Shown here one piece after another: positions 17,441-33,635 of a stretch of DNA of 64,000 nt. Source of the DNA: Acidobacteriota bacterium (lineage in GTDB: Bacteria; Acidobacteriota; Polarisedimenticolia; J045); the NCBI GenBank assembly GCA_030949985.1, contig JAUZRX010000027.1, forward strand, positions 19,536-83,535, given 5' to 3'. Every line of letters starts with the position of its first letter. Within the stretch, counting starts at the first letter, position 1. Position numbers and translations under genes: made by a program. The notes under the pieces are model-generated. The model did no database searches. It was not told where the DNA came from and worked only from the letters and a program-made list of their open reading frames with translations.

Positions 17441-17468
17441 GGCGCGGGCAGCCGTGGAGGCCAGGCCG

Positions 17469-19412
<1,944 letters not shown>

Positions 19413-19431
19413 GGCGCACAGGGAGCGATCC

Positions 19432-20701: not shown

Positions 20702-22891
20702 ATGCTCTCTTGCGTGCCGGGCCGAACCGTCGGAGCCCTCGCCCTGCTGCTGGCGGCCACCGCCTCACCCGCCCGGGCCGGCGATGCGGCGCGGGTGGTG
20801 GCGGGCACGGCGGACGGCAGCGCCATCCGGCTCGACGGCCGCCTCGATGAGCCGGCCTGGGCCGGCGCCGGCGTCATCGCCACGTTGGTTCAGCAGGATC
20901 CCCAACCCGGTCGACCCACCGTCTACGCCACGGAAGTGCGATTGTTGACCGATGAAACCAGTCTCTTCGTCGCCTTCACCTGCCGTGACCCCGATCCCGC
21001 AAAGATCGCCGTCCACACGATGCAAAGGGACGGCGATCTCTACGGCGACGACTCGGTCGCCGTGGTCCTCGAGACCCTCGGCGACCAGCGCCGTGGTTAT
21101 CTCTTCCGCGTCAACGCCGCCGGGGCGCGCCTCGATGGACTGATCTCCGGACCGGAAAGCGTCTCCACCGACTGGGACGGCATCTGGGACGCCCGGGTCC
21201 GGCGGACGGCGGACGGCTGGACCGCGGAGATCCGCATTCCCGCCCAGACCCTACGCTTCACCCCCCACGCGCCCTCCTGGGGATTGAACGTGGAACGCTA
21301 TGTCGCCCGCGACCGGCTCACCTTGCGCTGGACCGCCGCCACCCTCGATGCGCGACTGATCGACCTGCGCCGGGCCGGGCGCCTGGAGGGGGTCGACCGC
21401 CTCCGCCAGGGCCGGGGCGTTTCCATCAGCCCCTACGCCCTGGCGCGTTCCGACCGCGACCTCGCCGCCGACACCAGCCACCTCTCCGGTGATGCAGGGC
21501 TCGACGTGACCTGGAACCTGACCTCCGAGATCTCCGCGGTTCTGACTGTCAATACGGACTTCGCCGAGACCGAGGTGGACACGCGGCAGGTCAACCTGAC
21601 CCGCTTTCCCCTCTTCTTCCCGGAAAAGCGCTCTTTCTTCCTCGAAGGATCGAATCTCTTCTCCTTTGGCAGCGGATTGAGAACCGACTTCATCCCCTTC
21701 TTTTCCCGGCGCATCGGGCTGCACGAAGGACAGCCGGTTCCCATCGACGCGGGAGTCAAGCTGCTCGGCCAGAGCGGACGCTGGGGGGTGGCTCTGCTCG
21801 ACGTCCAGACCGCCTCCACGCCGACCCTTCCCGCCGCCAATCTCTTTGCCGGCCGTGTCACCTTCGACGCCAACGACCACTTGACCCTCGGAACCATCGT
21901 CACCCGGGGAGATCCGGACGGCGCGCGCGATCGTGCCCTCTACGGCGTCGATCTGCTCTGGCAGACCTCGACCTTTCACGGGGACAAGAACTTCTCGGTG
22001 GGTGCCTGGACCGCTCTTTCCCAGGGCGGCGAAGCCCTCGGCAAGCGATCCGGCTGGGGCCTGAAAGTGGACTACCCCAACGACCTTTGGGACGCCTATC
22101 TGCTCTACAAGGAATTCGGTCGGGGTCTCGATCCGGCCCTCGGTTTCTTGCCGCGCCCGGGCACCCGTTGGTACCAAGGCGGCGGCGCCTACCAACCTCG
22201 CCCCACGGGCAAGCGTTTCGGTTGGGTGCGGCAGTTTTTCTTCGAACTCTACGGGGCTCTCGTACTCGACTCCCGGGGTCGTACTGAATCCTGGAAACTG
22301 TTCTCCGCTCCCTTCAACGCCCGTACCGAATCCGGCGAACACATCGAAGCGAACGTCATGCCCCTTTTCGAGCGCCTGGATCAGCCCTTCGAGATCGCTC
22401 CCGGCGTCGTCATCGCCCCCGGCGGCTATTCTTTCACCCGCTACCGTGTCGAGGCCCAGTCATCCCGCCACCGCGCCTGGCAGATCGGCGGGCGGGTCTG
22501 GTTCGGTACTTTCTACGGTGGACGCCTGCGGGAGTACGAGTCCTACTTCCGCTGGACCAGCCCGCGTGGCGCTTTCCAGGTCGAGGCCGAGGCCGAGAAC
22601 AACTTCGGCAGTCTCCCCGCCGGAGACTTCATTCAGCGCCTGTGGCAGCTCAAGCTGGTCTACGCTTTCAACCCGGATCTGCTGCTCTCGAGTTATTTCC
22701 AGTACGACTCCGAATCCCGCAACCTCGGCCTCAACTCCCGCCTGCGCTGGACGCTGCGCCCGGGCAACGAACTCTACGTGGTCTGGAACCACGACTGGGA
22801 GCACCCCGCCGGCCAGGTCGGCACCCTGGCGCTGCGCCCCGTACGCGATCAACTGTCGGTCAAGCTGCGCTGGACCTTCCGGCCCCTCTGA
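20702..22891 (+). CDS. Secreted CBM9-like / DUF5916-like protein
   Basis: ATG at 20702 gives the signal peptide MLSCVPGRTVGALALLLAATASPARA. AIRLDGRLDEPAWAGAG is typical of family-9-like carbohydrate-binding modules. The long beta-rich C-terminus ends WTFRPL. The DUF name is from memory. Confidence 0.55.
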   Translation: MLSCVPGRTVGALALLLAATASPARAGDAARVVAGTADGSAIRLDGRLDEPAWAGAGVIATLVQQDPQPGRPTVYATEVRLLTDETSLFVAFTCRDPDPAKIAVHTMQRDGDLYGDDSVAVVLETLGDQRRGYLFRVNAAGARLDGLISGPESVSTDWDGIWDARVRRTADGWTAEIRIPAQTLRFTPHAPSWGLNVERYVARDRLTLRWTAATLDARLIDLRRAGRLEGVDRLRQGRGVSISPYALARSDRDLAADTSHLSGDAGLDVTWNLTSEISAVLTVNTDFAETEVDTRQVNLTRFPLFFPEKRSFFLEGSNLFSFGSGLRTDFIPFFSRRIGLHEGQPVPIDAGVKLLGQSGRWGVALLDVQTASTPTLPAANLFAGRVTFDANDHLTLGTIVTRGDPDGARDRALYGVDLLWQTSTFHGDKNFSVGAWTALSQGGEALGKRSGWGLKVDYPNDLWDAYLLYKEFGRGLDPALGFLPRPGTRWYQGGGAYQPRPTGKRFGWVRQFFFELYGALVLDSRGRTESWKLFSAPFNARTESGEHIEANVMPLFERLDQPFEIAPGVVIAPGGYSFTRYRVEAQSSRHRAWQIGGRVWFGTFYGGRLREYESYFRWTSPRGAFQVEAEAENNFGSLPAGDFIQRLWQLKLVYAFNPDLLLSSYFQYDSESRNLGLNSRLRWTLRPGNELYVVWNHDWEHPAGQVGTLALRPVRDQLSVKLRWTFRPL

Positions 22892-23008
22892 CCCGCGCAG
22901 ATCGGACCGGGGACCATCGCCGGTCCGCCGCCGTCCGCGCCCGACGCCGACTCCGGTCGGTCGATCGACCGAGTCTCCCCGCACCAAAAAGACCCCGGCA
23001 GCGGGCAG

Positions 23009-23815
23009 CTAGCGATGGCACTGGATGCAGAGCACCCAGCTCGATGCGGCGACAAGCAGTTTCCGGTGGCTCGATCCATGGGGCCGGTGGCAACTCGTAC
23101 AACCGAAGGGACGACCCTCCCGACGGGGGTCATCGCCACCGCCGACCGGGTGCTTGAGTACGGGATGATCGCGGCCCTCGGCGGAGAGCGGCACCCGCGG
23201 CGCCTGCTCGAGAAGCTGCCCGGGCAACTCGTGGCCGGCGAAGACCGCCTCCGGCGCGCTGGTCGCTCCCGCGGTCGGTACATGGCACGCCTCGCACAGG
23301 GCGTTTGCCGGAGCCCTCAGGAGGGCCGGCGCATGGCCTCCGTGGGGCATGTGGCAAGCCGTGCAACCATCGACTGTCAGCGGCGCATGGCCGACCGGCA
23401 GGTTCAGGTCCACGCCCTGATCCTCGTGGCACGCGGTGCACAATGCGTTGACCGGCTCGAGCAGCAGGCGCGGCTGGTTCGACGTGTGCGGGTCGTGGCA
23501 GTCGATGCAACTGCCCATTTCCAGGGCCTCGTGGGGGAAGTCCATGCCATCGGTCGGGTCGTCATGGCAGGCCAGGCAGAGTTCGGTGATTTCATCAGCC
23601 ACCAGGCCGATGTCGTGCTCTTCGGCATCACCCGTGTGGCAGCTGTCACAGCCGAAATCCCTGACGGCGGCATGCACTACCTTGCCCTCGTTCTTGTCGT
23701 CATGACAATCGACGCACTCCTGGCCCACGACCGGAAAGAAGCCCGCGCTCGTCAACGCCACGCCGGCGGCGAGCAACACGAGATTCGAAAAGAACGATTG
23801 TCGTCGACTCGGCAT
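23009..23815 (-). CDS. Multihaem c-type cytochrome, 9 CxxCH motifs, N-terminal signal/anchor
   Basis: CVDCH, CDSCH, CLACH, CIDCH, CTACH x2, CEACH, CTSCH, CIQCH. ATG at 23815 preceded by GAGGAG. Hydrophobic N-terminus FFSNLVLLAAGVALTSAGFF. Confidence 0.85.
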   Translation of the reverse strand: MPSRRQSFFSNLVLLAAGVALTSAGFFPVVGQECVDCHDDKNEGKVVHAAVRDFGCDSCHTGDAEEHDIGLVADEITELCLACHDDPTDGMDFPHEALEMGSCIDCHDPHTSNQPRLLLEPVNALCTACHEDQGVDLNLPVGHAPLTVDGCTACHMPHGGHAPALLRAPANALCEACHVPTAGATSAPEAVFAGHELPGQLLEQAPRVPLSAEGRDHPVLKHPVGGGDDPRREGRPFGCTSCHRPHGSSHRKLLVAASSWVLCIQCHR

Positions 23816-23826
23816 CAGACGACTCC

Positions 23827-25593
23827 TCAGTAGCCCTTGGGGTTGTGGTTCTTGCCGTGACAGGTGAGATAACAACGCCCCTTGAATGTTCCCTGGTCTT
23901 CGAAACGCAGGATTCCGGAGGAAGAAGGCGTCACATAGTCCGTATCGAAATTGATCAGGTGTGAATTGTTCGTCGCGTTGCCCTGGGTGGCGGAAACACC
24001 ATGGGGATCGTGACAGACGAGACACGAAGTGTTTTCACCGTCAATATGCTTGCGGTGCTCCTTGAAGCTGTTGTCGCCCATGATGCTCGCCCGATCGTGG
24101 CACTTGAAGCACATCGCGTACATGGCGTCGAAGTTGGTGCCCGTGTTGTTGATTCCGCGGTCGAGTCGCCGCTCCAGGATCGGGTGGTAGATCGAGCCAT
24201 GGGGCCCATTGGGGCCGCCGCCCCCCGCCCCCGGGCCGCTCTCGTTGTTGTGGCAATCGGTGCAGCGCAAGATGCTGCTGGTTGTCCATCCCGGCAACAG
24301 GCTCGGAACGTCCGCGTTCGCGCCCGCCGCCTCGACCGCATGGTGGGAGGGATTTCCGGGGTCGAATTCCAGCCGCACGTTGAACTGCACGATCTGTCGC
24401 GCCGAGTAGGGCGGGTTGGGAAGGCCCGATTCCTGTGGCTTGTTCGCACTGTCAGCGTGGCACTTGTAGCAGATTTCGTACTCGTATTGGGCCGGATCGA
24501 CCTTGGCCCCGGCGGAATCGATGCCCCAGACGCCGCTCAGGGCGCCGGTCACCCCGCCCGGCGTCGAAGCGGCCTGGTCGAAACTCGCGTGGGGATTGTG
24601 GCAGTCCTGGCATTCCGCGTGCCGGCTGGCGCCCGGGGAAATCTCCGGCAGGGGATAGGAAGGGTCGTTCGGCTCCTCAGAGGCATCGTGCACGGAAGGC
24701 GTCGTGGAAAACGTCGGATGGGAAGCCGCCTTCGAGAACTCCGAGACGATGTCCACCGCCGCCACCGATCCATCGTGGCATGCGGCGCAGGTCTGTTCTT
24801 CGACTTCCTTCAGCAGCCGCTGGGGTTCGTTCCCGGAATGGGGCCGGTGACACGATTCGCAGCCGTTGTCGGCAACCGTCGAGTAGCCGGTGTGAGCGCC
24901 GTCCAGGGACGTATAGCTCGCCGCAGAAGACTGGTGTGCCGATGGGTTTGTCGACCAGTAGTCGGGCTGGTGGCAGGTCAGGCAGAGGGCGGACGCCCGG
25001 TTCTGCTTGACGAGGAATTTGCGGGTCACCGGGTCGTTGTCTTCGCTGTGGGCGTCGTGACAAGCAGTGCACTGGATCTTCCCGGCGGAGTCGAGTTCCA
25101 CCGCGTCGCCTCCGGGAGGATCCGTCACGTCCGTGCTCGCGCCGCTACGCTGGAAGGAGACCGGGTGATCGTCAGTGAGATCGACCCCCAGGTTCGAGTT
25201 CCCTGCCGGCATCTTTCCGCCCGCGCCCGCTCCGCTCAGCGCGATCAATCCGTTGTTCACCGTCTGCCCCAAAGCCACCGTGCCGTCATGACAGCTCAGA
25301 CAGAGCTTGGAACTGCCGTCCGGGTTGCCGATCGGCGTCGACGCATCGAGAGTGGTGCTCGTGTAGGTGCTGTAGCCCGCCGTGGAAGTTTGATGGTTCC
25401 ACAGTGGCACCGCTGGATTGGCGTTGTGCGGAGTATGGCAGAAGATGCAGATGCGGTCCTCGGTATCCGCCGTGATCGATCCCGGGCCGGTGACCGAGAG
25501 ATTGTGCTTGCTCGACGCGATATCGCCGGCCGGCACGAGAGTCGTTGTCAGCAAGACGCAAGCAGCGATGACCGAAGGGCGCCAACCTATCAT
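23827..25593 (-). CDS. Large multihaem c-type cytochrome, 11 CxxCH plus 1 CxxxCH, KHNLS-type (doubled-CXXCH-like) N-terminal module
   Basis: CIFCH, CLSCH, CTACH, CLTCH, CESCH, CAACH, CQDCH, CYKCH, CTDCH, CFKCH, CLVCH, CYLTCH. SSKHNLS...CIFCHTPH...PLWNH. ATG at 25593 overlaps the stop of the upstream NHL gene (ATGA). Confidence 0.85.
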   Translation of the reverse strand: MIGWRPSVIAACVLLTTTLVPAGDIASSKHNLSVTGPGSITADTEDRICIFCHTPHNANPAVPLWNHQTSTAGYSTYTSTTLDASTPIGNPDGSSKLCLSCHDGTVALGQTVNNGLIALSGAGAGGKMPAGNSNLGVDLTDDHPVSFQRSGASTDVTDPPGGDAVELDSAGKIQCTACHDAHSEDNDPVTRKFLVKQNRASALCLTCHQPDYWSTNPSAHQSSAASYTSLDGAHTGYSTVADNGCESCHRPHSGNEPQRLLKEVEEQTCAACHDGSVAAVDIVSEFSKAASHPTFSTTPSVHDASEEPNDPSYPLPEISPGASRHAECQDCHNPHASFDQAASTPGGVTGALSGVWGIDSAGAKVDPAQYEYEICYKCHADSANKPQESGLPNPPYSARQIVQFNVRLEFDPGNPSHHAVEAAGANADVPSLLPGWTTSSILRCTDCHNNESGPGAGGGGPNGPHGSIYHPILERRLDRGINNTGTNFDAMYAMCFKCHDRASIMGDNSFKEHRKHIDGENTSCLVCHDPHGVSATQGNATNNSHLINFDTDYVTPSSSGILRFEDQGTFKGRCYLTCHGKNHNPKGY

Positions 25594-26666
25594 GCCCCAT
25601 CCCCCTCGGAGCCGATGAAACGAAACACTTGCAAACGGTGATTGGCGGAATCCGCGACGTAGATCCGGTCTCCCTGGTCGATGCAGATCCCGGCGGGCAG
25701 CCACACCTCTCCCGCACCGGATCCGCCACGGCTGAAACCAGTCAGCAGCCTTCCATCCTCGTCGAAGACCTGGATCACATCCTGGAGGGCGTCGACCACG
25801 TAGAGGTGCCCGGCGCTGTCAACCGCAAGACCTTTGATCTTGTCGAAGGCGCCCGGCCCCCGGCCGGCGTGACCGATGGCGCGAATGAACGCGCCTTCCG
25901 CCGTGAAGACCTGCACGCGGAAGTTCAACACGTCGGCGACATAGATCCGGCCTCCCGGTCCCACGGTGACCGATGCGGGAAAGTTGAATTCTCCCTCGCC
26001 GGTACCCCGACCTCCCAGGGTCATGACACGGCGCCCCCGCCGGTCGAAGGCCAGCACACGGTGGGCGAGGGTATCGACCACCAGCAATCGCTCTCCATGA
26101 CGATCGAAGGCCAGCCCCGTGGGCCGTTCGAATTCGGCATCCGGGGCCAGGTCCCGCACGAAGCGTCCCGTCCGGGCGTCGAAAACCAGCACTCTCCCCG
26201 CCGCCGAATCGGACGCGAAGAGCCATCCGTCACCGTCGAGGGCCACTGCCACCGGCGAGATCAGCGGAACCTTGCCACCGGCGAGTAGACGTCTATAGCG
26301 GCGCTTGCCCCGATCGAAGATATGAAGGCTGCGGGCGTCGGGATCGGCCACCACCAACCGCTCGCCGTCGATCGCCACGGCCAGCGGCCGGGCCAGTCCA
26401 TGTCGTTGACGACCGTGCAACATCCAACCCAGAAAACGGCGCATCGCGCTGCCGCCCAGGCCGAGATCCCGCGGCGTACGGATTTCCTGCAAGTACTCGA
26501 TCCGCGGCGGAGCGGGGGGCGGAGGCCAGACGATTCGCTCCGGAGTCGCGATGGGAGCGTGGTGGCAGGACGTGGCCGCCAGGGCGACCGTCACCAGCAG
26601 CAAGGCCATTGCGACAGGCCGCGACCCGCGCGTAATCTCGACCCGTCTCCATACCGGACGAAGCAT
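25590..26666 (-). CDS. NHL-repeat six-bladed beta-propeller protein, lipoprotein-like N-terminus (NHL-2)
   Basis: Repeated units of the form G.(I/L)YV.D..N.R(V/I).VF. MLRPVWRRVEITRGSRPVAMALLLVTVALAATSC contains a lipobox-like ATSC. ATG at 26666. Confidence 0.8.
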   Translation of the reverse strand: MLRPVWRRVEITRGSRPVAMALLLVTVALAATSCHHAPIATPERIVWPPPPAPPRIEYLQEIRTPRDLGLGGSAMRRFLGWMLHGRQRHGLARPLAVAIDGERLVVADPDARSLHIFDRGKRRYRRLLAGGKVPLISPVAVALDGDGWLFASDSAAGRVLVFDARTGRFVRDLAPDAEFERPTGLAFDRHGERLLVVDTLAHRVLAFDRRGRRVMTLGGRGTGEGEFNFPASVTVGPGGRIYVADVLNFRVQVFTAEGAFIRAIGHAGRGPGAFDKIKGLAVDSAGHLYVVDALQDVIQVFDEDGRLLTGFSRGGSGAGEVWLPAGICIDQGDRIYVADSANHRLQVFRFIGSEGDGA

Positions 26667-26680
26667 CTCTGTCGTCACCC

Positions 26681-28489
26681 TCAAGAGAAGCGCCGCGAAA
26701 TGCGAATCAGCCACGTGTCGTCCGAGAAGCTCGTGCTGTTGTCCCGGGAGTAGTGGGCATAGCCGGCGGAAAAGCGCCAGACCGCGTAACTCCACTCGAC
26801 CTCCGGGTGCCAGCTTACGATCCGCTCATCACCGATGCTCGAAAAGGTCCGGTCCTCCACCCGTGCCTGCAGCCGCAGACTCAAGCGCGAACGCAGCCTG
26901 CAATGTCCGCCCACGACCAGCACATCCGCCCTGTTGACCAGGTCGTTCCCCGGGAGAAAGGGCGACCCGCCCGCCGGGTCGGGGATGAAATCCGAGACTC
27001 CATCCCGCTGGCTGTAGGTCACCGTCAGTCCCCCTCGATGGCCCGACAGGGAGGCCTCGAGGCCGGTTTCCCGGCTGTTCTGGAGTCCGAAATCGAAGGT
27101 GTCCCGATTACGGTCCACGTAAAATACCGCCGCCCGGCCCCGGAGTCCGCGCCGTATTCCCCCCTCGAGGCCCACAGTGGCCCGGACCTCGTCGAGGGAG
27201 TAGCCCACGCCGGTGACGTCGTTCTCGTCGTTGCTGTAACTCGCCTCGGCGAAGAAGTCCATCGCGGCGCCCAGGGGCAGCCGAAAATCGCCCCCCAGGT
27301 TGAAATGGCTCAAACGGCGCTCTTCCCCGTCGCCAAAGCGGGTCTTGGTCACGCCGATCCCTACCGATCCACTCACCGAGGCGCCTCCCACCCGGCCGTG
27401 GAAGCGCGCCCCCAGGCCACCGCCGAGAAGATCCTCACCCCGCTCACCGTCCCTCGTGCGGGTATCGAGCCGCCCGCCACTGAGCTGGTTGGTAATCTCC
27501 CAGTGCGTTCCCGCACGCACCCTCGTTGCGAAACGAAGGTGGTGACTCGTCGAGTCGACGAAACGGCCGTCGTTACTGCTGTAGTCGTAGCTGACGTTCC
27601 ACCCGAAGCGATCCCGGCGGGGATGGTCATAGACGGTGCTGACGCGTTGAATCGTCAGGCTGTCGGTTTGCCCCGTCGAAAAGCGGGCGTCCGACAGGGT
27701 GTGGAAAACAGTAGTGATGAGGGTGGAGTCGTCCGAGAAGCGCCTGCGTTCACTGAGAGAGAAGTCCTTGCGATCGAAGAGGGATCCCAACAAGAGCTCC
27801 TCCTGCCGGCTTCCGCTGTACCGCACGGTGAAGTCGTTGTTCCTTCCCCGGTTGCGGTACTCGAGCAGGGTGTGGCGCCTGCGTTCGGCCAGGGAAACCG
27901 GGGACGTCAGGTCGTAGGAAGAGCGGTCGTACTGGGCCCGGATGTTCTGATCACCACGCAGGTTGAGCGACCACTCGGCTCCCCAGGAAGCCGTCTGGCG
28001 GTCGCTGCTGGCCAGGGACAGCGCCGCCACGTCGGTAGTGGATTTTCGGGCGTGCAGCCTGAGCGGAAAGGAACGGGCGGGAAAGAAGGTCACCGCCGCA
28101 CGGTAGCCCAGTGTGTCGGAATCCTCGGCGCCGGAGGTCGCGCTGCGGTCCGTGCGAAACATGTCCAGACCGAGATTGTAACGGGCGAAACGATAGTCCC
28201 AGATCGACCCGGCCAAGTCGAGGGAGTATTTCTGACGAAATGCCCTGGAAGAGGCCGAGGTCGCGGCCGAAGTGCTGGCGCTGCGATACAACTCCCAATC
28301 CGCCGAGCCGCTGATGTCGAAGAAGTTGATGTTGTCGGGCTCGTCGTCGACCTGGGCCAGGCAGGGCCCATGCTGCCCCAAGGTAAAAAGAGCAAGGCTG
28401 AATAACAGGAGGACCCCCCCCGGGAGTCCGGGAACAGAGGGAGTTGTTCCCGGACTGCACGGAGATCCCGACTTCACCTCGCCCACCAT
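26681..28489 (-). CDS. Predicted outer-membrane beta-barrel protein (~600 aa), porin-like candidate
   Basis: Hydrophobic signal-like segment GGVLLLFSLALFTLGQHGPCLAQ. Abundant alternating polar/hydrophobic stretches (TVTYSQRDG, LSLRLQARV, WRFSAGYAHY). C-terminus TWLIRISRRFS. The start is ATG 28489 or GTG 28507. No recognisable enzyme motif. Confidence 0.55.
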   Translation of the reverse strand: MVGEVKSGSPCSPGTTPSVPGLPGGVLLLFSLALFTLGQHGPCLAQVDDEPDNINFFDISGSADWELYRSASTSAATSASSRAFRQKYSLDLAGSIWDYRFARYNLGLDMFRTDRSATSGAEDSDTLGYRAAVTFFPARSFPLRLHARKSTTDVAALSLASSDRQTASWGAEWSLNLRGDQNIRAQYDRSSYDLTSPVSLAERRRHTLLEYRNRGRNNDFTVRYSGSRQEELLLGSLFDRKDFSLSERRRFSDDSTLITTVFHTLSDARFSTGQTDSLTIQRVSTVYDHPRRDRFGWNVSYDYSSNDGRFVDSTSHHLRFATRVRAGTHWEITNQLSGGRLDTRTRDGERGEDLLGGGLGARFHGRVGGASVSGSVGIGVTKTRFGDGEERRLSHFNLGGDFRLPLGAAMDFFAEASYSNDENDVTGVGYSLDEVRATVGLEGGIRRGLRGRAAVFYVDRNRDTFDFGLQNSRETGLEASLSGHRGGLTVTYSQRDGVSDFIPDPAGGSPFLPGNDLVNRADVLVVGGHCRLRSRLSLRLQARVEDRTFSSIGDERIVSWHPEVEWSYAVWRFSAGYAHYSRDNSTSFSDDTWLIRISRRFS

Positions 28490-28491
28490 CC

Positions 28492-29193
28492 CTACTTCAC
28501 GTGACACGTCGAGCAGAGTTGGCTGCCCGCGTTGGACTTGGTGAGAAACGGCTCATTGGTGTTGTCATGGGGGTCGTGACAACTGGCGCATTGAACCTTG
28601 CCGCCGAAAAGGGGAACAGTGTGGGCGGCGTCCACGTAGGACGTGGAATCCGGTGTGGCGAGTTCACCGTCCGCGGTGGCCAGGGCGGCGTCATAGGTGA
28701 AATTGACGGGATGGTCGTCGCTCAGGCTCGTACCCATGTTGGTCGGACGGCCGGACTGAATGCGACCGGAGGCGTCGAGTTCCGTTCCCGAACCCATGGT
28801 GGGATTGGCGCCGGTGTCGTTGGCCGGGTTGCCAAGGTCGTTGACCCCCACCGTGCCATCGTGGCAGCTCATGCAAAGATTCGAGACATCCGTGCCGCCG
28901 CCGATATCGGTCACGTCGCTGGCGTCGAGTGTCGACGACGTGTAGACCCCGTAGGACGCCGTGGAAGACTGGGTGTGGTTCCACAGCGGAGCCGCCGGAC
29001 TCGCCTGGTGCGGCGTATGACAGAAGACGCAGATCTGGTCCTCGTTGGTGGACTTGTCGGTGATCTGGTCGGCACCCGCGGTGGACGAAAGGTTGTGCTT
29101 CGTATCCACGACGCTCGACTGGGCCCCGACCCACGTGACACCGGCGACGAGGACGAGAGAGATCAAGGCGAGAGGAAGCATGATGCGTTTCAT
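28492..29193 (-). CDS. Tetrahaem c-type cytochrome, KHNLS-type module, secreted
   Basis: MKRIMLPLALISLVLVAGVTWVGAQ signal peptide. CVFCH, CMSCH, CASCH, CSTCH. ATG at 29193 preceded by GGAAGGAGA. Paralogous to the N-terminal ~230 aa of the cytochrome at 23827..25593. Confidence 0.85.
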   Translation of the reverse strand: MKRIMLPLALISLVLVAGVTWVGAQSSVVDTKHNLSSTAGADQITDKSTNEDQICVFCHTPHQASPAAPLWNHTQSSTASYGVYTSSTLDASDVTDIGGGTDVSNLCMSCHDGTVGVNDLGNPANDTGANPTMGSGTELDASGRIQSGRPTNMGTSLSDDHPVNFTYDAALATADGELATPDSTSYVDAAHTVPLFGGKVQCASCHDPHDNTNEPFLTKSNAGSQLCSTCHVK

Positions 29194-29215
29194 GGATGTG
29201 TCTCCTTCCCTGCTT

Positions 29216-30388
29216 TCATGACGAATCACGGTTGGAATCCGGCTCCTCACCTTCCCTCTCGGAGCCGGAACTTGTCGGCTGGATTTCCACCATGGCTGCT
29301 TGCCGGGGCCGGTCCGCGCCCCTCTGCGGCAAATATTCGAATACCTGCACGCGTCGATTGACCTGATCGACGACGTAGATGCGGCCCTTGGCATCGATGT
29401 GCATGCCTGCCGGTAACCAGAAGCTTCCTGCGCTTCGGCCCAGAGTGCCGACGGCCAGCAGGAGCCGGCCCTGGCCGTTGAAGACCTGGAAGTTGTTGAA
29501 AGCGGCATCGACCACGTAGACGTGTCCTTCGGGGTCGATAGCGATACCCTTGGGACGGGTGAAGCTGCCGGGAGCATCACCGAGGCCCCCGACTGTCTGA
29601 AGATGTCGACCCGCGGGAGAAAACTGCTGGACACGAAAATTGCCGGTATCGACGACCCACAGGTTTCCCAGGGCGTCGAGGGTCAAGTTGGTGGGGAAAT
29701 TGAACGCGCCGTCGCTGTTGCCCCGGTGGCCCCAGGTCTCCAGGTGACGACCGGTTTCCGCGTCGTAGACGAATATCCGGTGCAGGTGAGAGTCGGCGAC
29801 GTAGAGGCGGGAGCGACCGGCATCGAGGGCGATGCCCGTCGGGTTTCTTAATCCCTCCACGGGGCCGATGGCCCATTCCACCGCTCCGCCGGGAGCGATG
29901 CGGAAAACCTGGTCCAGCTTGGCATCCGAAACGTACACTCGCTGTCGGTCGTCGACGGCAATCCCTATCGGAGTGATGAGGCGCACTCGGGGGTCGATTT
30001 TCAGGTGCCGCACCTTCTGAGCGGCTTCGTCGAAGACCACGATCCGGCCGTTGCCCGTGTCGGTGACGTAGATCCGTCCTTGCTTGTCGACGGTCACACC
30101 GTAGGGCTTGCGCAGGCTGACGCCCCGCTTTCTCTGGGGCCCTATCAACAGGCGCCGTAAGCGGGAACGGGGTTTGCGGTAGTCTTCCGAGCCTTGCAGG
30201 GTGCGAACGAAACGAATCCGTGGCTGGGCCGGGGGCAAGGGCCAGACCAGGGCCGGCGATGGGGCTTGGCCGGACTCCGGTTCCGGGCCGGCCAGGCTGG
30301 CACCGCCAGGCGGTATCCAACCCGGTGCTGTCGCAACGATCAGCAGCGCCCACAGGGGAACGTGCCACCGCTTGCCTGGTCTCCTCAC
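29216..30388 (-). CDS. NHL-repeat six-bladed beta-propeller protein (NHL-1), first gene of the operon
   Basis: Six units: GRIYVTDTGNGRIVVFD, QRVYVSDAKLDQVFRI, SRLYVADSHLHRIFVYD, GNLWVVDTGNFRVQQFS, GHVYVVDAAFNNFQVFN, GRIYVVDQVNRRVQVFE. GTG at 30388 preceded by GAGGAGAGG. Hydrophobic N-terminus. Confidence 0.8.
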   Translation of the reverse strand: MRRPGKRWHVPLWALLIVATAPGWIPPGGASLAGPEPESGQAPSPALVWPLPPAQPRIRFVRTLQGSEDYRKPRSRLRRLLIGPQRKRGVSLRKPYGVTVDKQGRIYVTDTGNGRIVVFDEAAQKVRHLKIDPRVRLITPIGIAVDDRQRVYVSDAKLDQVFRIAPGGAVEWAIGPVEGLRNPTGIALDAGRSRLYVADSHLHRIFVYDAETGRHLETWGHRGNSDGAFNFPTNLTLDALGNLWVVDTGNFRVQQFSPAGRHLQTVGGLGDAPGSFTRPKGIAIDPEGHVYVVDAAFNNFQVFNGQGRLLLAVGTLGRSAGSFWLPAGMHIDAKGRIYVVDQVNRRVQVFEYLPQRGADRPRQAAMVEIQPTSSGSEREGEEPDSNRDSS

Positions 30389-30462
30389 GTCGGCCCTCTC
30401 CTCACAGTCTGTTCTTGGCTGTTTAGGACAACGTAGGATCCTGCCGAAGAGCTAATCAACGG

Positions 30463-30478
30463 TTTATTCATGAATAAA
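30463..30478. promoter_or_regulatory. Perfect 16-bp palindrome TTTATTCATGAATAAA upstream of the NHL/cytochrome operon (candidate transcription-factor site)
   Basis: Read directly from the sequence. It lies 75-90 bp upstream of the NHL-1 start, in the most AT-rich part of the 207-bp divergent intergenic region. Confidence 0.5.
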
Positions 30479-30534
30479 TACGGATTTTTCCGGTCCTTTA
30501 TTGGCCATCGAGACGGGGTCTTCGGCGCCCCGCC

Positions 30535-30582
30535 TTGACAGGCGCGAGGCGGGACGCTAAGTTGGTTATCACTAACTAACTT
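30535..30582 (+). promoter_or_regulatory. Candidate promoter (TTGACA-17-TAAGTT) with overlapping TetR-type operator (10-4-10 inverted repeat)
   Basis: TTGACA at 30535-30540, then 17 nt, then TAAGTT at 30558-30563. AAGTTGGTTA-tcac-TAACTAACTT at 30559-30582 has one mismatch between arms. AAGGAG RBS at 30584-30589 and ATG at 30596. Confidence 0.55.
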
Positions 30583-30595
30583 CAAGGAGCACCCC

Positions 30596-31171
30596 ATGGG
30601 GGACCAGCGACGCGCAGAGATCCTGGACCAGGCCATGGCCCTGCTGATCGAGGACGGTATCGCCGCCCTGACCATGAAGAGGGTCGCCGAGCGGATGGGG
30701 TTTACGGAACCCGCCATGTACCGCCATTTTCGCAACAAGCAGGACCTGGTGATTCACCTGGTGCGACGAACGAGAGACCGTTTCAGCTCCTTCTACGAAG
30801 GCTGCGACCCGGCCGACCCTCCCGAGGTCTTTCTCCGGCAATTCCTGTTCAGCCTGCTGGCCTTTCTCGACCAGGTGGATGGGGTGACGATCCTCTTCCT
30901 CTCGGATTCCGCCTACAACCGCGATGACAAGATCCGGGCTGAAATGGAAGCTTTACTCGGTGAGCAGCTCGGCCGTCTCCGCGCCTATCTCACCCTGGCC
31001 CGGGAGCGAGGTGAAGTCCGGGAAGACCTCCATCCGGACGCCGCGGCCCTGGTCTTGATGGGAGCCGTTCAAGCCCTGACCATTCGGCACATCCTCGTCC
31101 AACAGCGGCCCCCGATCGCCTCGCAAGGCGAGGCCGTGCTCGATGTCCTTCTGCGGGGCGTGCTGTCATGA
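30596..31171 (+). CDS. TetR/AcrR-family transcriptional regulator
   Basis: N-terminal HTH ALTMKRVAERMGFTEPAMYRHFRNKQDL. ~190 aa. ATGA overlap with the next gene. Confidence 0.85.
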   Translation: MGDQRRAEILDQAMALLIEDGIAALTMKRVAERMGFTEPAMYRHFRNKQDLVIHLVRRTRDRFSSFYEGCDPADPPEVFLRQFLFSLLAFLDQVDGVTILFLSDSAYNRDDKIRAEMEALLGEQLGRLRAYLTLARERGEVREDLHPDAAALVLMGAVQALTIRHILVQQRPPIASQGEAVLDVLLRGVLS

Positions 31172-32493
31172 GGCGGCTTCTGGCGGCCCTGGCCGGGGCC
31201 ACTCTTGCCATCACGCCGGCCAGCCTTTCGAACGCCGCCGAGGCGGTGTTGACGCTTGATCAGGCCCTGGCCCGCGCGTTGGCGCATCACCCCGCCCTCG
31301 GAGCCCTCGAAGCCACGGCGCGTTCCCGCTCCAGCGGCGAGCAGGCCGAAAAGCGCCGCCGCATGGGCGAAGTCAGTGCGCAGGCCGCCTTCCAGCGTCA
31401 GAGCGACGACATGCTGATCCGGCCGATGACCCGTGACCTGCTCGCTTCCGGGCCGGAGAACATGCCCTTCGACGACGCCTACGGATCCTGGAGTGTGGGA
31501 TACCACCTGCCGCTCTACAGCGGAGGCGCCCTCGCGAGCGCCACCCGGGCCGCGCAACAGGGTGCGGCGGCGGCGCGGGCGGGACTGCTGCGAGCGACCG
31601 CCTCCCTGCGTCACCAGGTGCTGGCGACCTACGCGGGACTACTCTCCCTGGACGGACAGATCGTGGCCTGGGAGCAGGAGAAACAGGCCCTCGCCTCCCT
31701 GCTGGAGCATATCCGGCTGGGCGAACAGGCCGGACGGCTGGCCCACGTGGACTCTCTCAAGGCCCAGGTCAGGATCCAGGAGGCGCAAGCACGCCTGGCA
31801 GACCTGCGGGGACGGCGCGCAAGCCTCGACGCCCGCCTGGCCGCCCTGCTCGGAGAAGAGCGGCCCCCGGCAGGCGGTTACGTGGTCGCGGCGATCCCGG
31901 CGCCGGAACTCGGCTCCCTGGAGAACGAGGAAGCGCTGATCGCCATCGCCCTGACCCGCCGCAGCGACCTCCGACAGGCGCGGCACCTCGAGCAGGAGCG
32001 CCAGGCCGAAGCCCAGGTCGCTCGGGCTGCGCGTCGGCCACAGGTTCAGCTCGACGCCCGACTTCATGGGGTTCATGCCGCCGGATACTCGTTCAACGAC
32101 ACCTACTGGACGGTGGCCGCGACGGCCTCGATTCCGCTGAGCGACATGGGACGCCGGCGACACCTGGCCGAGCGCCGCGAACACCTGGCCCGGGCGGCCG
32201 CCCTGAACACTCGGGACCTCGAGGGGCGCATCCGGGCCGAGGTCCGGTCCGCGTTGGCCGCTCTTCGCACCGCCCGGGCCGCACTGGGAGCCCACCGCGC
32301 AGCCCTCGAGCTGGCCCGCGAAGTCGCGCGTCTCGAACAGCTCAAGTACGACAGCGGTCGAGGGAACATCGACGACCTGCTCGCCGCGCGCGCCCGGCTC
32401 CGAGGTGCCGAATCCAACCTGTTGCAAGCGCGTAACGACCTGATCGTGGCCGCTGACGACCTGCGCACCACCATCGAGGGGGAAATACCGTGA
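31168..32493 (+). CDS. TolC-family outer-membrane efflux protein
   Basis: Signal peptide, LTLDQALARALAHHPAL start, and two long coiled-coil-rich repeats typical of outer membrane factors. Confidence 0.8.
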   Translation: MRRLLAALAGATLAITPASLSNAAEAVLTLDQALARALAHHPALGALEATARSRSSGEQAEKRRRMGEVSAQAAFQRQSDDMLIRPMTRDLLASGPENMPFDDAYGSWSVGYHLPLYSGGALASATRAAQQGAAAARAGLLRATASLRHQVLATYAGLLSLDGQIVAWEQEKQALASLLEHIRLGEQAGRLAHVDSLKAQVRIQEAQARLADLRGRRASLDARLAALLGEERPPAGGYVVAAIPAPELGSLENEEALIAIALTRRSDLRQARHLEQERQAEAQVARAARRPQVQLDARLHGVHAAGYSFNDTYWTVAATASIPLSDMGRRRHLAERREHLARAAALNTRDLEGRIRAEVRSALAALRTARAALGAHRAALELAREVARLEQLKYDSGRGNIDDLLAARARLRGAESNLLQARNDLIVAADDLRTTIEGEIP

Positions 32494-33635
32494 AGACCCG
32501 CTGGCTGCTCCTGTTCCTGCTCGCGGTCGCCGCCGGTGCCGGCGCCTGGCTCGCACGTCATCGCTACCAGCAGCTCCACTCCCAACGACCGGCGATAGTC
32601 TCCGAGATTCCCGTCACCACGGCGCGAGTCCGGCAAGAGCTGTTCATCGCCGAACGCACCGCCTATGGCGTGGTGGCCACCGATCAGCGTGCGATTCTCC
32701 GGGCCCGGACCGCGGGCCAGATCACAGTGATCGCCGCGCGGGAAGGGACCCCGGTGCGTGCCGGCCAGACCCTCGCGGAACTCGACGGGACTCCTGGACT
32801 CCCCACGGGCGACCGGGCCGCGCGAACCACGGCGTTGAGTCAACTCGAGCACTCCATCGCGGCTCTCGAGCAGGCGGTGGCCAATCTCGAGCGCATCTAC
32901 CGCCGCGACAGGATGCTCCTCGAAAACCGGGCGATCGCGGCCCAGGTCGCCGAGCTTTCGGAAAACCGCTGGCAGGAAGCCCGGGCCCAGCTCGCGACAC
33001 GCAAGAGCGAGGTGGCGGGCCTGGTGGCCCAACTCGAACAGTTCACGATCAAGGCGCCCTTCACCGGCACGGTCTCCCGGGTCCACGGGAGCGTGGGCGA
33101 CGTGGTGGCCCCCGGGGCCCCTCTCCTCGAACTGGAGAGCACGACGCCCTGCAAGATCGTCGTGACCGTGGCCGCCGACGATTTGGCCTTCCTCGCCGTG
33201 GGGTCACGCGCCCGGATCCTGCATGGCGGATCGACGATCGAAGCGAAGATCAGCCGGATCCATCCCGCCGCCCGAGGAGGAGCCGGCACGGTCGAGGTAT
33301 CGCTGCCCACGCCGCCCTTCGACCTGCCGACCGGATCCGCGGTGACCGTCCTCCTCGAGACCGCTTGCTTGGCGGACGCCCTGGTCGTGCCCCTCGACGC
33401 GGTGGTCGAGGGCCCCACCACCGCCCGCCTGCACGTGCTCGACCATGGGGTGGTGCGTCTCGTTCCGGTGCGCGTCCTCGCCGCCACCGAACACCGGGCC
33501 GCTGTGGCCGGTGACATCCGCGCCGGTGACGTCGTCGTCCGCGGCAGCGAGTCCCTGCTGCTGCGCCTGACCGACGGGGCGAAGGTCTCCGTTCACAATC
33601 CACCGGTTGCCGGCAAGGTCAAGACCCATGGCTAG
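32490..33635 (+). CDS. Efflux RND periplasmic adaptor subunit (MFP/HlyD family)
   Basis: N-terminal TM/signal, lipoyl-like and coiled-coil segments. IKAPFTGTVSRV motif. GTG at 32490 overlaps the tolC-like stop. Confidence 0.8.
   Translation: MKTRWLLLFLLAVAAGAGAWLARHRYQQLHSQRPAIVSEIPVTTARVRQELFIAERTAYGVVATDQRAILRARTAGQITVIAAREGTPVRAGQTLAELDGTPGLPTGDRAARTTALSQLEHSIAALEQAVANLERIYRRDRMLLENRAIAAQVAELSENRWQEARAQLATRKSEVAGLVAQLEQFTIKAPFTGTVSRVHGSVGDVVAPGAPLLELESTTPCKIVVTVAADDLAFLAVGSRARILHGGSTIEAKISRIHPAARGGAGTVEVSLPTPPFDLPTGSAVTVLLETACLADALVVPLDAVVEGPTTARLHVLDHGVVRLVPVRVLAATEHRAAVAGDIRAGDVVVRGSESLLLRLTDGAKVSVHNPPVAGKVKTHG

Follow-up and report, generated by a model that had tools for sequence, protein, structure and literature searches.

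Gene content and layout of the locus

The window analysed here, a 64-kb stretch of Acidobacteriota DNA, holds a cluster of six ORFs that all lie on the minus strand between positions 23009 and 30388 (Table 1). In the order of transcription, these genes are separated by 22, 2, 14, −4 and 11 nt, the −4 being an ATGA overlap, and a Shine-Dalgarno-like purine run was seen ahead of every one of them when the upstream sequences were read by eye. Three encode multihaem cytochromes, here called cyt4, cyt12 and cyt9, whose 4, 12 and 9 haem motifs add up to 25 and which are the only multihaem ORFs of the 64-kb window; the other three code for two NHL propellers (NHL1 and NHL2) and a predicted barrel. 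The ORF and motif check thus reproduced what an initial annotation of the same DNA had listed, i.e. six tightly spaced minus-strand genes with one overlap and 25 haem motifs. The cluster is flanked by arginine decarboxylase, agmatinase and DUF5916 genes on one side and by TetR–RND genes on the other.

Table 1. The six genes of the cluster in order of transcription (positions are those of the window).
Gene	Position	Strand	Product
NHL1	29216..30388	-	390 aa, GTG start; secreted six-bladed NHL beta-propeller
cyt4	28492..29193	-	233 aa; OmcE-family tetrahaem c-type cytochrome, predicted filament (nanowire) subunit
barrel	26681..28489	-	602 aa including signal peptide; predicted large outer-membrane beta-barrel, ~28 strands
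NHL2	25590..26666	-	358 aa; six-bladed NHL beta-propeller lipoprotein; stop overlaps cyt12 start (ATGA)
cyt12	23827..25593	-	588 aa; dodecahaem cytochrome, OmcE-like N-module plus 8-haem C-terminal extension
cyt9	23009..23815	-	268 aa; MtrA/DmsE-like nonahaem cytochrome

Two cytochromes with homology to the nanowire subunit OmcE

OmcE is a cytochrome with four haems per subunit, and in Geobacter sulfurreducens and Desulfuromonas soudanensis its polymers form an insulated haem wire outside the cell. With its four CxxCH motifs and a KHNLS sequence after the signal peptide, cyt4 matches the solved OmcE filaments over its full length, both that in PDB entry 7tfs_A (E 8.5e-40, 40.8% identity) and that of D. 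soudanensis (9yuq_N; E 5.3e-30, 39.6% identity). These two experimentally verified nanowire subunits are 41% identical to each other (bioRxiv 10.1101/2025.10.22.684050), and cyt4 is as near to both as they are to one another. Eight histidines (H33, H59, H62, H111, H161, H206, H209 and H231) are shared without exception by cyt4 and its relatives, the two OmcE proteins of known structure and the N-terminal module of cyt12. Four of them belong to the CxxCH motifs and four are distal axial histidines, which agrees with the criterion that Petersen et al. give, ‘four CxxCH plus four other histidines’ (bioRxiv 10.1101/2025.10.22.684050). At the sequence level, cyt4 is therefore an orthologue-grade OmcE homologue with all eight axial His ligands, and its filament formation is predicted from homology alone. 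OmcE-like tetrahaems are widespread, and polymerisation is presumed only where companion genes are present (Petersen et al., bioRxiv 10.1101/2025.10.22.684050). The other five genes of the cluster code for the same set of partners that omcE has at other loci.

KHNLS also follows the signal peptide of cyt12, which has 11 CxxCH motifs and one CxxxCH. The OmcE-family HMM matches this protein with 159.6 bits over aa 8–209 only, that is, exactly one complete OmcE-like module, which is 43% identical to cyt4 and matches OmcE 7tfs_A at E 8.5e-26. The CxxxCH motif (C574/C578/H579) is invariant in 54 family members, as are 28 histidines, 16 of which lie outside the motifs, more than the 12 haems need. 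The family is very large, with 7280 matches, the best 120 of which are at least 51% identical. With the 11-haem proteins of Uet-type loci, cyt12 shares 28–31% identity over ~500 aa, OmcE-like N-module included; by sequence, it is a homologue of the UetJ-type undecahaem cytochromes. A Sec signal is the only export feature of cyt12: the IAAC of the window protein is not kept in orthologues, and cyt12 is therefore counted as having no lipoprotein anchor. Its AlphaFold2 model was too poor for use (pLDDT 58).

Conservation of the cluster

The same genes occur in the same order in other Acidobacteriota MAGs, with protein identities of 43–79%. Among these relatives (loci are given by L numbers), all six genes are found in L002/L010 and L003 and the first five in L004, while L006 is truncated. 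Further afield, omcE-type clusters were located in more than a dozen bacterial phyla, and the components were found in Desulfobacterota, including Geobacteraceae (L089, L081), Planctomycetota, Verrucomicrobiota, Bacteroidota, Nitrospirota, Proteobacteria and others. Of the 80 species-representative loci compared, which come from many phyla, 35 have the full set together, and the figure is 29 of 45 when only loci of at least 15 kb are considered. The commonest order across loci is E4-NHL-M5-barrel-NHL-X12, with a small cytochrome of 5 haems, whereas the window has N-E4-B-N-X12-M9 and the 9 haems of cyt9. Conservation of gene set and order in other Acidobacteriota MAGs, and of the components in other phyla, places the six-gene arrangement beyond chance.

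The predicted barrel and the MtrA-like cytochrome

The 602-aa protein has no match in Pfam, NCBIfam or the PDB sequences. Its AlphaFold2 model (mean pLDDT 83.4) is all-beta with 29 strand elements, read as 28 strands, and Foldseek searches with this model returned outer-membrane barrels only, the top TM-score (0.54) being that of MtrB (6r2q_B). The protein that had been put forward as a putative barrel is thus predicted to be a large transmembrane beta-barrel, and the operon as a whole, with its barrel prediction and cytochromes, holds up as an outer-membrane multihaem operon of the extracellular-electron-transfer type. Sequence kinship to MtrB or PioB was not found with Pfam, NCBIfam or further sequence comparison. 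A profile search with the barrel retrieved 16 clusters below 1e-30 and 242 below 1e-3, all of ~550–750 aa, and with a broad profile, 61 of 89 loci have a barrel homologue next to their OmcE-like gene. The C-terminus of the window protein reads ...WLIRISRRFS with Ser as the last residue, a position taken by Phe or Tyr in 13 of 17 family members. The barrel is a candidate for a nanowire anchor, a secretion pore or a conduit sheath.

The nine CxxCH motifs of cyt9 come with four Paired_CXXCH stretches (Pfam, 7e-42). The protein matches the MtrA chain 6r2q_A at E 7.1e-16 and scores 106.8 bits against the DmsE family TIGR03508, under the cut-off of 192.2. Most complete loci (25 of 35) include an MtrA-like cytochrome, and in most loci its gene lies directly upstream of the barrel gene, like mtrA before mtrB. 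These features make cyt9 a candidate periplasm-to-barrel electron carrier. A cyt9 counterpart exists in L002 and L003 and is missing from the otherwise syntenic Acidobacteriota loci L004 and L006 (the latter truncated), so cyt9 may be non-essential.

The initial annotation had proposed an electron conduit, and the part of this proposal that pairs a barrel with multihaem cytochromes stands; what it overlooked is that the KHNLS tetrahaem is a homologue of the OmcE nanowire subunit. The likeness of cyt9 to MtrA, the top TM-score of MtrB among the barrel matches and the MtrA-like gene immediately before the barrel gene in most related loci would all suit a plain Mtr/Pcc-like porin–cytochrome conduit, in which the barrel encloses cyt9, monomeric cyt12 and/or cyt4 serve as surface cytochromes, the propellers are structural accessories and no polymer forms; moreover, polymerisation has been shown for two OmcE homologues only. 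Yet cyt4 is a full-length OmcE homologue, no further from the two proven filament subunits than they are from each other, and for this reason the cluster is better read as a nanowire cluster. The cyt4 protein also keeps every axial His, including whichever one forms the inter-subunit bond, and the gene set is that of verified nanowire producers. Neither cyt4 nor cyt12 carries a lipoprotein anchor, which surface cytochromes of the MtrC/OmcA type typically have, and the barrel does not belong to the MtrB/PioB family by sequence. We therefore regard the plain conduit as improbable.

Two paralogous propeller–cytochrome pairs

Pfam confirms the NHL repeats in NHL1 (5e-38) and in NHL2 (2.5e-29; DUF5128, 7e-24), just as it does the Paired_CXXCH domains. 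NHL1 shares 54–59% identity with its counterparts at the head of the syntenic Acidobacteriota clusters. It has a Sec-type signal peptide and a VWPLPPAQPRIRF motif ahead of the propeller; a lipobox-like Cys was not found in it. NHL2 carries a lipobox-like ATSC at residues 31–34, with a lipobox also present in its L001, L002 and L004 orthologues, and among PDB sequences it matches NHL propellers best, TRIM71 and Thin for example (1e-58). The 36% identity between NHL1 and NHL2, taken with that between cyt4 and the N-module of cyt12, indicates that the two pairs of an NHL protein and a KHNLS cytochrome noticed earlier are real paralogous pairs. In L007, L018, L031, L063, L070 and L072, the slot beside the OmcE-like gene is filled by a SurA-like PPIase, and a chaperone-like role fits this slot since such proteins are of a periplasmic chaperone type.

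Both NHL proteins have sub-threshold matches to ScyF/ScyE-type and lactonase-like propellers, and the cluster has RND efflux genes as neighbours both here and in L001. Together, these observations could suggest a periplasmic redox enzyme or detoxification system with catalytic propellers, possibly tied to the RND genes. However, every match to a named-enzyme propeller falls far under the family cut-off, the RND neighbours are not conserved in L002, L003, L004 or other phyla, and OmcE homology and barrel partnership are kept across phyla, so that we consider this reading most improbable.

A probable minimal OmcE-type nanowire cluster and how it may work

Quite probably, then, the operon is a minimal OmcE-type cytochrome-nanowire cluster in Acidobacteriota. 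In the mechanism that we propose, all six proteins would be Sec-exported, and haem would be attached to the cytochromes in the periplasm. The MtrA-like cyt9 would receive electrons from periplasmic carriers and, like MtrA within MtrB, extend into the barrel or pass through it, and the barrel itself would be the filament's exit pore and anchor. The OmcE-like N-module of cyt12 would join on to the end of the cyt4 polymer via OmcE-type inter-subunit His–haem ligation, while the 8-haem extension would connect the base of the filament with both the barrel and cyt9 as a wire. Each NHL propeller would partner one OmcE-like protein; by analogy with chaperone-usher pili, the propellers might be periplasmic or outer-membrane-tethered chaperones or scaffolds that keep polymerisation-prone modules until these reach the barrel. 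Each of these roles, for barrel, propellers, cyt12 and cyt9 alike, is tentative, with chances clearly below even. According to Petersen et al., omcE operons show no evident candidate for a tip or stopper (bioRxiv 10.1101/2025.10.22.684050), which clashes with the adaptor reading of cyt12 unless such a candidate was overlooked.

The barrel might also be a secretion usher for cyt4 that carries no current, with cyt9 and cyt12 as periplasmic carriers that charge the filament base in some other way. A porin-like mounting or secretion route has been proposed for OmcS and OmcE on the analogy of chaperone-usher pili, and the absence of cyt9 from some syntenic loci as well as the Sec signal of cyt12, with no lipid anchor, would be in keeping with it. 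We find this unlikely, given the strongly conserved placement of the MtrA-like gene next to the barrel gene and the OmcE-like docking module of cyt12, which is hard to square with a freely diffusing periplasmic carrier.

Electrons could flow outward to minerals or organic matter or, as proposed for Uet, inward.

Comparison with known systems

According to the initial annotation, NHL propellers were not known to be paired with such cytochromes in any characterised conduit. This did not hold, as the set has been described in the minimal omcE, Uet and D. ferrophilus clusters. That the same gene set is already characterised is true, structurally, of the filament subunit in Geobacter and Desulfuromonas, and not true of the barrel, the propellers and the two large cytochromes.

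MtrCAB of Shewanella (PDB 6R2Q) and the Geobacter Pcc and Ext systems resemble the window in that a large barrel in the outer membrane goes together with a periplasmic multihaem cytochrome of the MtrA kind and with additional outer cytochromes. The window differs from them in having ~28 barrel strands as against 26 in MtrB, in lacking an MtrC/OmcA-type lipoprotein decahaem, and in its OmcE-type subunit and two NHL propellers.

Likeness to some other systems rests on description rather than sequence. The osc (omcS companion) cluster of G. sulfurreducens (Shen et al. 2025, as cited in PMC13194489) and Gmet_0556-0558/GSU2494-2495 reportedly equip a nanowire cytochrome with dedicated folding and secretion proteins, and large barrels are said to occur in most OmcS and OmcE genomic regions; OmcS itself is hexahaem and unrelated in sequence to OmcE. 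The Desulfovibrio ferrophilus IS5 clusters DFE_448-451 and DFE_461-465 are likened to the window in the same manner, and no barrel gene is mentioned for them in the searched passages of Deng et al. (PMC5815863). For Acidobacteriota, conserved porin–multihaem clusters with OmcE-like cytochromes have been described as ‘EET1 porin-scaffold-cytochrome’ (bioRxiv 10.64898/2026.05.27.727921).

Uet, the undecahaem electron transfer cluster of Ca. Tenderia electrophaga/Tenderiales and some Gallionella (bioRxiv 10.1101/2022.05.06.490989; PMC10734462), shares with the window a UetA-type tetrahaem, a 28-strand barrel (UetC), propellers (UetH/I) and a UetJ-type cytochrome beside an NHL gene, a comparison made through loci of the same architecture rather than the Tenderia sequences themselves. 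In such Uet-order loci (L031 from Ideonella, L063, L070 and L072), the cyt4 homologues are 32–36% identical and the broad profile finds a barrel homologue at 1.7e-9 to 1.4e-25, with none detected in L072. The large cytochrome has 12 haem motifs in the window and 11 in Uet, and the MtrA-like nonahaem is present in the window and not in Uet. The proposed role of Uet is electron uptake (bioRxiv 10.1101/2022.05.06.490989), and the same architecture might serve uptake here, from Fe(II), minerals, cathodes or partner cells to the periplasm. Apart from the homology of cyt4, the barrel, the NHL proteins and cyt12 to their counterparts in Uet-like loci, this would agree with the expression of Uet in cathodic growth (bioRxiv 10.1101/2022.05.06.490989) and with the reported induction of the D. 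ferrophilus NHL multihaem clusters in electron-donor starvation, alongside electrode electron uptake (PMC5815863). However, the window lacks the Uet-specific c7 trihaems (UetDEG), cupredoxin (UetF) and PPIase (UetB), cyt4 groups by sequence with the Geobacter-type OmcE of metal reducers, and multihaem wires are reversible, their direction not being decidable from sequence. Uptake is thus a possibility, albeit a doubtful one.

The nanowire reading finds its nearest counterpart in the omcE cluster of Desulfuromonadia (G. sulfurreducens OmcE/GSU0618, PDB 7TFS; D. soudanensis WTL OmcE), with which the window has the six-component inventory in common: in the ‘smallest omcE cluster’, OmcE and a large barrel are accompanied by two propellers and two multihaem cytochromes (Petersen et al. 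2025, bioRxiv 10.1101/2025.10.22.684050). In the Geobacteraceae locus L089 (Oryzomonas), homologues of the barrel and both NHL proteins, along with MtrA-like cytochromes, accompany a cyt12 homologue with 35.5% identity over its full length. Relative to the omcE cluster, the window has its own gene order, nine rather than five haems in the small cytochrome, different genomic flanks and no glycosylation island; the propellers of the published minimal cluster are both lipoproteins, whereas NHL1 has no lipobox. Acidobacteriota are not among the five phyla listed in the omcE preprint (bioRxiv 10.1101/2025.10.22.684050), and the closest relatives of the window are Acidobacteriota MAGs. The cluster thus belongs to a recently recognised kind that has already been described, and is likely an Acidobacteriota copy of the OmcE nanowire cluster.

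Cluster architecture and genomic context

Cytochrome nanowires are the best-supported structural basis of long-range microbial electron transfer, and the locus described here bears on how such wires are exported and held in place, and how they make electrical contact with the cell. By homology and synteny, its six minus-strand genes can be shown to form a predicted OmcE-type nanowire cluster, a new, compact example of a recently described kind with a gene order of its own. All six ORFs lie exactly where the initial annotation had placed them, with the same intergenic gaps (22, 2, 14, -4 and 11 nt) and the same 25 haem motifs (4 + (11+1) + 9). What was observed there is thus confirmed, and its interpretation of the genes as an uncharacterised outer-membrane electron conduit finds partial support. 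The start codons chosen there also fit the family alignments better than do the public gene calls of a sister contig (L009, one of the related loci from other genomes; GCA_030949355.1 JAUZSO010000001.1). These public calls are apparently mis-started: the barrel is given as 566 aa with its signal peptide lost, cyt12 as 525 aa with the KHNLS motif and the first haem motif lost, and NHL2 is over-extended to 441 aa.

Features of the predicted nanowire cluster (NHL, propeller; cyt4, cyt12 and cyt9, cytochromes named by their haem motifs)
Feature	Position	Strand	Description
NHL1	29216-30388	minus	Pfam NHL repeats
(I/L)VWPxPPxxPRIx(Y/F) in NHL1	30205-30246		aa 48-61
cyt4	28492-29193	minus	4 CxxCH
barrel (putative)	26681-28489	minus	602 aa, predicted all-beta
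NHL2	25590-26666	minus	Pfam NHL repeats, lipobox-like ATSC
(I/L)VWPxPPxxPRIx(Y/F) in NHL2	26490-26531		aa 46-59
cyt12	23827-25593	minus	11 CxxCH + 1 CxxxCH
cyt9	23009-23815	minus	9 CxxCH

The three cytochromes are the only multihaem ORFs of the 64-kb window, and all of them contain Paired_CXXCH/c7/c3-type domains (Pfam). A promoter and terminator scan of 22600-30800 returned nothing above shuffled expectation. On one side, the cluster is flanked by genes for an arginine decarboxylase, an arginase-family protein (probably an agmatinase, which would give a polyamine pathway) and then a DUF5916 protein, the last of which converges on the cluster end; these genes (17454-20298 and 20231-22891, plus strand) are unrelated to the nanowire-type genes. 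On the other side, transcribed away from the cluster, lie genes for a TetR regulator, a TolC-like OEP, a membrane-fusion protein and an AcrB-type RND pump (30596-36774, plus strand). A functional tie between the cluster and these efflux genes is unlikely and was rejected because the RND neighbourhood is not conserved among related loci: an RND pump adjoins the barrel gene in L001, and not in L002, L003 or L004. About 10 kb from the cluster, 40074-42080 (plus strand) encodes a secreted-looking FG-GAP repeat protein with MopE-type putative metal-binding motifs; L004 also has a MopE-motif protein a few kb off its cluster (13045-14526), possibly by coincidence.

Cyt4 as an OmcE homologue

Judged by its sequence, cyt4 is a full-length homologue of OmcE. 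The 233-aa protein has a signal peptide and CxxCH motifs at residues 55, 107, 202 and 227, as expected of the OmcE family (secreted, ~220-235 aa, four CxxCH). A PDB sequence search aligned its residues 6-233 with residues 7-232 of the G. sulfurreducens OmcE nanowire 7tfs_A (E 8.5e-40, 40.8% identity) and also retrieved 9yuq_N (E 5.3e-30, 39.6% identity), which, from its 218 aa and 16 chains, we take to represent the OmcE bundle from D. soudanensis (Petersen et al.). The two experimentally verified OmcE subunits are 41% identical to each other (Petersen et al. 2025, bioRxiv 10.1101/2025.10.22.684050). In an alignment of nine sequences (cyt4, five relatives, both solved OmcE proteins and the N-terminus of cyt12), exactly eight histidines are invariant. 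In cyt4, these are the four of the CxxCH motifs together with H33 (the His of KHNLS), H62, H161 and H209, a set that fits the published pattern, in which four additional histidines serve as haem ligands alongside four CxxCH motifs (Petersen et al. 2025). In OmcE and OmcS wires, a haem ligated by histidines of two adjacent subunits links them (PMC12954529); all four distal histidines of cyt4 are conserved, among them whichever one bridges subunits. The main rival explanation, a non-polymerising Mtr-like conduit in place of a nanowire, has this conserved ligand set against it, as well as a gene set that is the same as that of verified filament producers.

Like Geobacter OmcE, cyt4 is closer to the N-terminal modules of 12-haem cytochromes from other phyla (39-45% identity) than to the stand-alone tetrahaem proteins of those same clusters (30-38%; L049, L053, L074, L083 and others), a pattern that suggests either two tetrahaem subfamilies or repeated module exchange.

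The large cytochromes and the propellers

The second OmcE-like sequence of the cluster lies within cyt12, whose residues 8-209 score 159.6 bits against the OmcE-family HMM and are 43% identical to cyt4. Beyond residue 209 follows an extension with eight further haems, which matches only at motif level. A construction from three joined OmcE modules, as 12 = 3 x 4 haems might imply, was ruled out, the module at aa 8-209 being the only one. Cyt12 belongs to a very large family with tight conservation: there were 7280 matches among the scored candidates, and each of the best 120 reaches at least 51% identity at a length of ~590-600 aa; 28 histidines are invariant in the family, as is the CxxxCH motif. 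An AlphaFold2 model of cyt12 (54 sequences) reached a pLDDT of 58, too poor for a fold search. The IAAC in its signal peptide was not counted as a lipobox because the Cys is missing from orthologues, and no conserved lipobox was found on cyt4 or cyt12.

Cyt9 appears related to the MtrA/DmsE family, below the curated threshold: the DmsE/MtrA decahaem model TIGR03508 gave 106.8 bits (cut-off 192.2), with 9 haems versus 10, and MtrA itself (6r2q_A, for which the depositor's molecule name is wrong) was matched at 7.1e-16 over part of the length.

NHL1 and NHL2 are predicted NHL-repeat six-bladed beta-propellers, with 127.7 and 100.2 bits for PF01436 (cut-off 20) and, for NHL2, matches of about 1e-58 to the solved NHL propellers TRIM71 and Thin. 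Orthologues of NHL2 keep its lipobox; NHL1 has a plain signal peptide without one. The two pairs of NHL and OmcE-like genes are paralogous, NHL1 and NHL2 sharing 36% and cyt4 and the cyt12 module 43% identity. Between the signal peptide and the propeller, the cluster NHL proteins carry a proline-rich motif (see the table), which a strict regular expression recovered from 42 of 130 cluster NHL ORFs across phyla (among them those of L003, L004, L007, L012, L020, L024, L060, L080 and others) and from 0 of 5031 other ORFs of the same loci. This segment could serve in docking to the barrel or to the OmcE-like partner.

The barrel

The barrel protein matched no model in Pfam or NCBIfam (E up to 0.1), and its family profile retrieved no PDB sequence, MtrB included. 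Word-based searching retrieved only 17 relatives, most of which end in ...RFF; the three with a named source are Acidobacteriota MAGs. The AlphaFold2 model built from this 17-relative alignment (mean pLDDT 83.4) is uninterrupted all-beta with 29 strand elements and, since one strand is broken, reads as a barrel of ~28 strands. Foldseek searches of the PDB with this model returned only outer-membrane barrels (TonB-dependent transporters, LptD, MtrB), the highest TM-score being that to MtrB (6r2q_B, 0.54/0.48). By sequence, the protein is not a member of the MtrB/PioB family (PF11854, TIGR03509), and the likeness is at fold level alone. In an exhaustive profile search, 16 representative clusters scored below 1e-30 and 242 scored below 1e-3; almost all have 550-750 aa, and Thiohalomonas, Nitrospirota and Polarisedimenticolaceae are among their sources; word-based searching from the Thiohalomonas homologue P0151 found only two proteins. 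With an all-beta model, Foldseek matches to outer-membrane barrels and profile matches across the family, the 602-aa product is predicted to be a large barrel, just as the initial annotation had proposed.

Its C-terminus (26681-26692) ends in ...RRFS. Among the 17 family members, the terminal residue is Phe or Tyr in 13/17 and Leu in 3/17. A terminal Ser is unusual for a BAM beta-signal and could stem from natural variation or from a difference in sequencing or assembly.

Conservation and spread

Acidobacteriota MAGs share the order NHL-cyt4-barrel-NHL-cyt12, their proteins being 43-79% identical to those of the window. The cyt9 gene is present in L002/L010 and L003 and absent in L004; L006 is truncated. 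A locus from Eisenbacteria (L008) reads cyt-NHL-cyt4-barrel-NHL-cyt12, and L007 reads cyt4-PPIase-barrel-NHL-cyt12. Beside its cluster, L007 also carries a divergent operon (1115-4828, minus strand) for a third NHL protein, a ~23-haem cytochrome and a cytochrome b of the Ni_hydr_CYTB type, which might be the way into the pathway at the inner membrane; an operon of this type is absent from the window. The complete Acidobacteriota genome CP070706.1 has a decayed copy (L001, 9719-15040), which lies immediately downstream of a CusB/CusA-type RND pump and retains intact barrel and NHL genes. In this copy, the homologue of cyt12 is broken into two pieces (319 and 96 aa), and cyt4 and the first NHL gene were not found.

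A scan of a single genome for each GTDB species, with the alignment of the OmcE family as query, listed at least 600 stretches, of which at least 576 were confirmed. Taken as a lead, the module has at least 576 occurrences in species-representative genomes, with a spread that takes in Planctomycetota, Verrucomicrobiota, Bacteroidota, Nitrospirota, Calditrichota, Zixibacteria and others. The 80 best-scoring stretches belong to Acidobacteriota, Planctomycetota, Verrucomicrobiota, Bacteroidota, Ignavibacteria/Melioribacteraceae, Calditrichota, Chlorobiota, Nitrospirota, Alpha-, Beta- and Gammaproteobacteria, Desulfobacterota (including a Geobacteraceae member), Zixibacteria, Eisenbacteria, Poribacteria, Kiritimatiellia and Ca. 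Frackibacter. Their loci were classified heuristically from stop-to-stop ORFs by phmmer and a barrel profile. For the barrel, an HMM of the 17 close relatives alone reached just 13 loci; a broad profile that adds distant representatives from the exhaustive search (61 loci) was used instead.

By this classification, an OmcE-like tetrahaem cytochrome, a cyt12-type cytochrome, a barrel homologue and at least two NHL genes occur together in 35 of the 80 best-scoring loci; among loci of at least 15 kb, the full set is found in 29/45. An MtrA-like cytochrome accompanies 25 of the 35 complete sets. The commonest order is E4-NHL-M5-barrel-NHL-X12, where E4 denotes the OmcE-like tetrahaem, X12 the cyt12-type and M5 (or M9) an MtrA-like cytochrome with five (or nine) haems, and where the MtrA-like gene directly precedes the barrel gene. 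The order of the window, NHL-E4-barrel-NHL-X12-M9, is confined to close Acidobacteriota relatives. In several loci, a SurA-like PPIase fills the slot beside the OmcE-like gene, which fits a chaperone role for that slot, although in L011 and L023 an NHL gene is present alongside the PPIase.

Five-haem OmcE-like proteins of normal length were also observed, in L012 (9948-10781), L065 (4595-5314), L073 (9080-10708; from Ca. Frackibacter, with a barrel homologue present as well), L077 (4707-5441) and L086 (15788-16462). These fit the '5-heme OmcE-like' group, proposed as a possible separate and leakier nanowire family (Petersen et al. 2025).

Proposed mechanism

In the arrangement that we propose, cyt4 would polymerise outside the cell, with the ~28-strand barrel acting as exit pore and anchor. 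Cyt9 would pass electrons through the barrel in the manner of MtrA within MtrB, and the OmcE-like module of cyt12 would dock on the end of the filament, such that cyt12 wires the filament to the barrel. NHL1 and NHL2 would be chaperones or scaffolds, each paired with one OmcE-like protein. Sequence alone does not reveal which way the electrons flow.

That the large cytochrome always carries one OmcE-like module is a lead that makes it a testable candidate for the filament base. A more elaborate and still doubtful version casts cyt12 as a base or adaptor, whose single module caps or nucleates the cyt4 polymer through the inter-subunit His-haem bond and whose 8-haem tail plugs into the barrel together with the MtrA-like cytochrome, the propellers being dedicated chaperones, one per OmcE-like protein. 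Such a role for cyt12 would be new, since Petersen et al. (2025) see no candidate for an initiator, a tip or a stopper in the omcE operon. If true, porin-cytochrome conduit and cytochrome nanowire would be two halves of one ancient chaperone-usher-like machine that includes the undecahaem electron transfer (Uet) cluster of Tenderiales and spans well over a dozen phyla versus the five reported. A further lead, from sequence comparison, is the homology of the OmcE/barrel/NHL/12-haem module to the Uet module. Should these leads hold, extracellular wiring would be far commoner in environmental bacteria than the Geobacter-centred picture has it, and the conserved accessory genes would become targets for heterologous nanowire production. 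The remaining novelty concerns phylum breadth, unification with Uet and the cyt12 adaptor hypothesis, none of which is specific to the window.

Comparison with known systems

The MtrAB, PioAB and Pcc conduits have a barrel of the MtrB/PioB family (PF11854, TIGR03509), unlike the window. A surface lipoprotein cytochrome of the MtrC/OmcA or OmcB type is likewise not in the window, where PF22113 gave only weak, sub-threshold matches. NHL propellers beside multihaem cytochromes have also been noted in D. ferrophilus (PMC5815863), and in G. metallireducens the NHL protein Gmet_0556 is reported to play an important part in extracellular iron reduction (cited in bioRxiv 10.1101/2022.05.06.490989).

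The minimal omcE cluster consists of OmcE, a large beta-barrel, two beta-propeller lipoproteins and two multihaem cytochromes, and all six components are in the window, although only NHL2 of its two propellers has a lipobox. Petersen et al. (2025) take a barrel together with a propeller lipoprotein as the sign that an OmcE homologue is nanowire-competent. The omcE cluster of Desulfuromonadia lies between purHDE/resB-ccsB and ffh; the flanks in the window differ, this position being a lineage-specific, non-defining feature. The window cluster is compact, with six genes and without a glycosylation island, and probably comes from Acidobacteriota, which are not among the five phyla named for omcE clusters (Petersen et al. 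2025). This phylum assignment follows from the nearest relatives of the cluster and from the sister contig in GCA_030949355.1. 'Porin-scaffold-cytochrome' clusters with OmcE-like cytochromes have been described in peat Acidobacteriota (bioRxiv 10.64898/2026.05.27.727921).

The Uet cluster, found in Gallionella too (PMC10734462), comprises a tetrahaem cytochrome (UetA), a PPIase (UetB), a 28-strand barrel (UetC), trihaem cytochromes (UetDEG), a cupredoxin (UetF), NHL proteins (UetH/I) and an undecahaem cytochrome (UetJ; bioRxiv 10.1101/2022.05.06.490989). The window has homologues of the UetA, UetC, UetH/I and UetJ types, its barrel having ~28 predicted strands as in UetC and cyt12 having 12 haem motifs versus the 11 of UetJ. 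Because the PPIase, the c7-type trihaems and the cupredoxin are not encoded at 23009-30388, the window cluster is a relative of Uet rather than a Uet cluster. The comparison was made via four loci with the Uet gene order (L031, L063, L070 and L072). Cyt12 is 28-31% identical to their 11-haem proteins over ~500 aa, OmcE-like module included, and the tetrahaem proteins of these loci share 32-36% identity with cyt4; the broad profile detected a barrel homologue in L031, L063 and L070 and did not detect one in L072. This tetrahaem, 11-haem and barrel homology argues that the Uet and omcE clusters are variants of one module.
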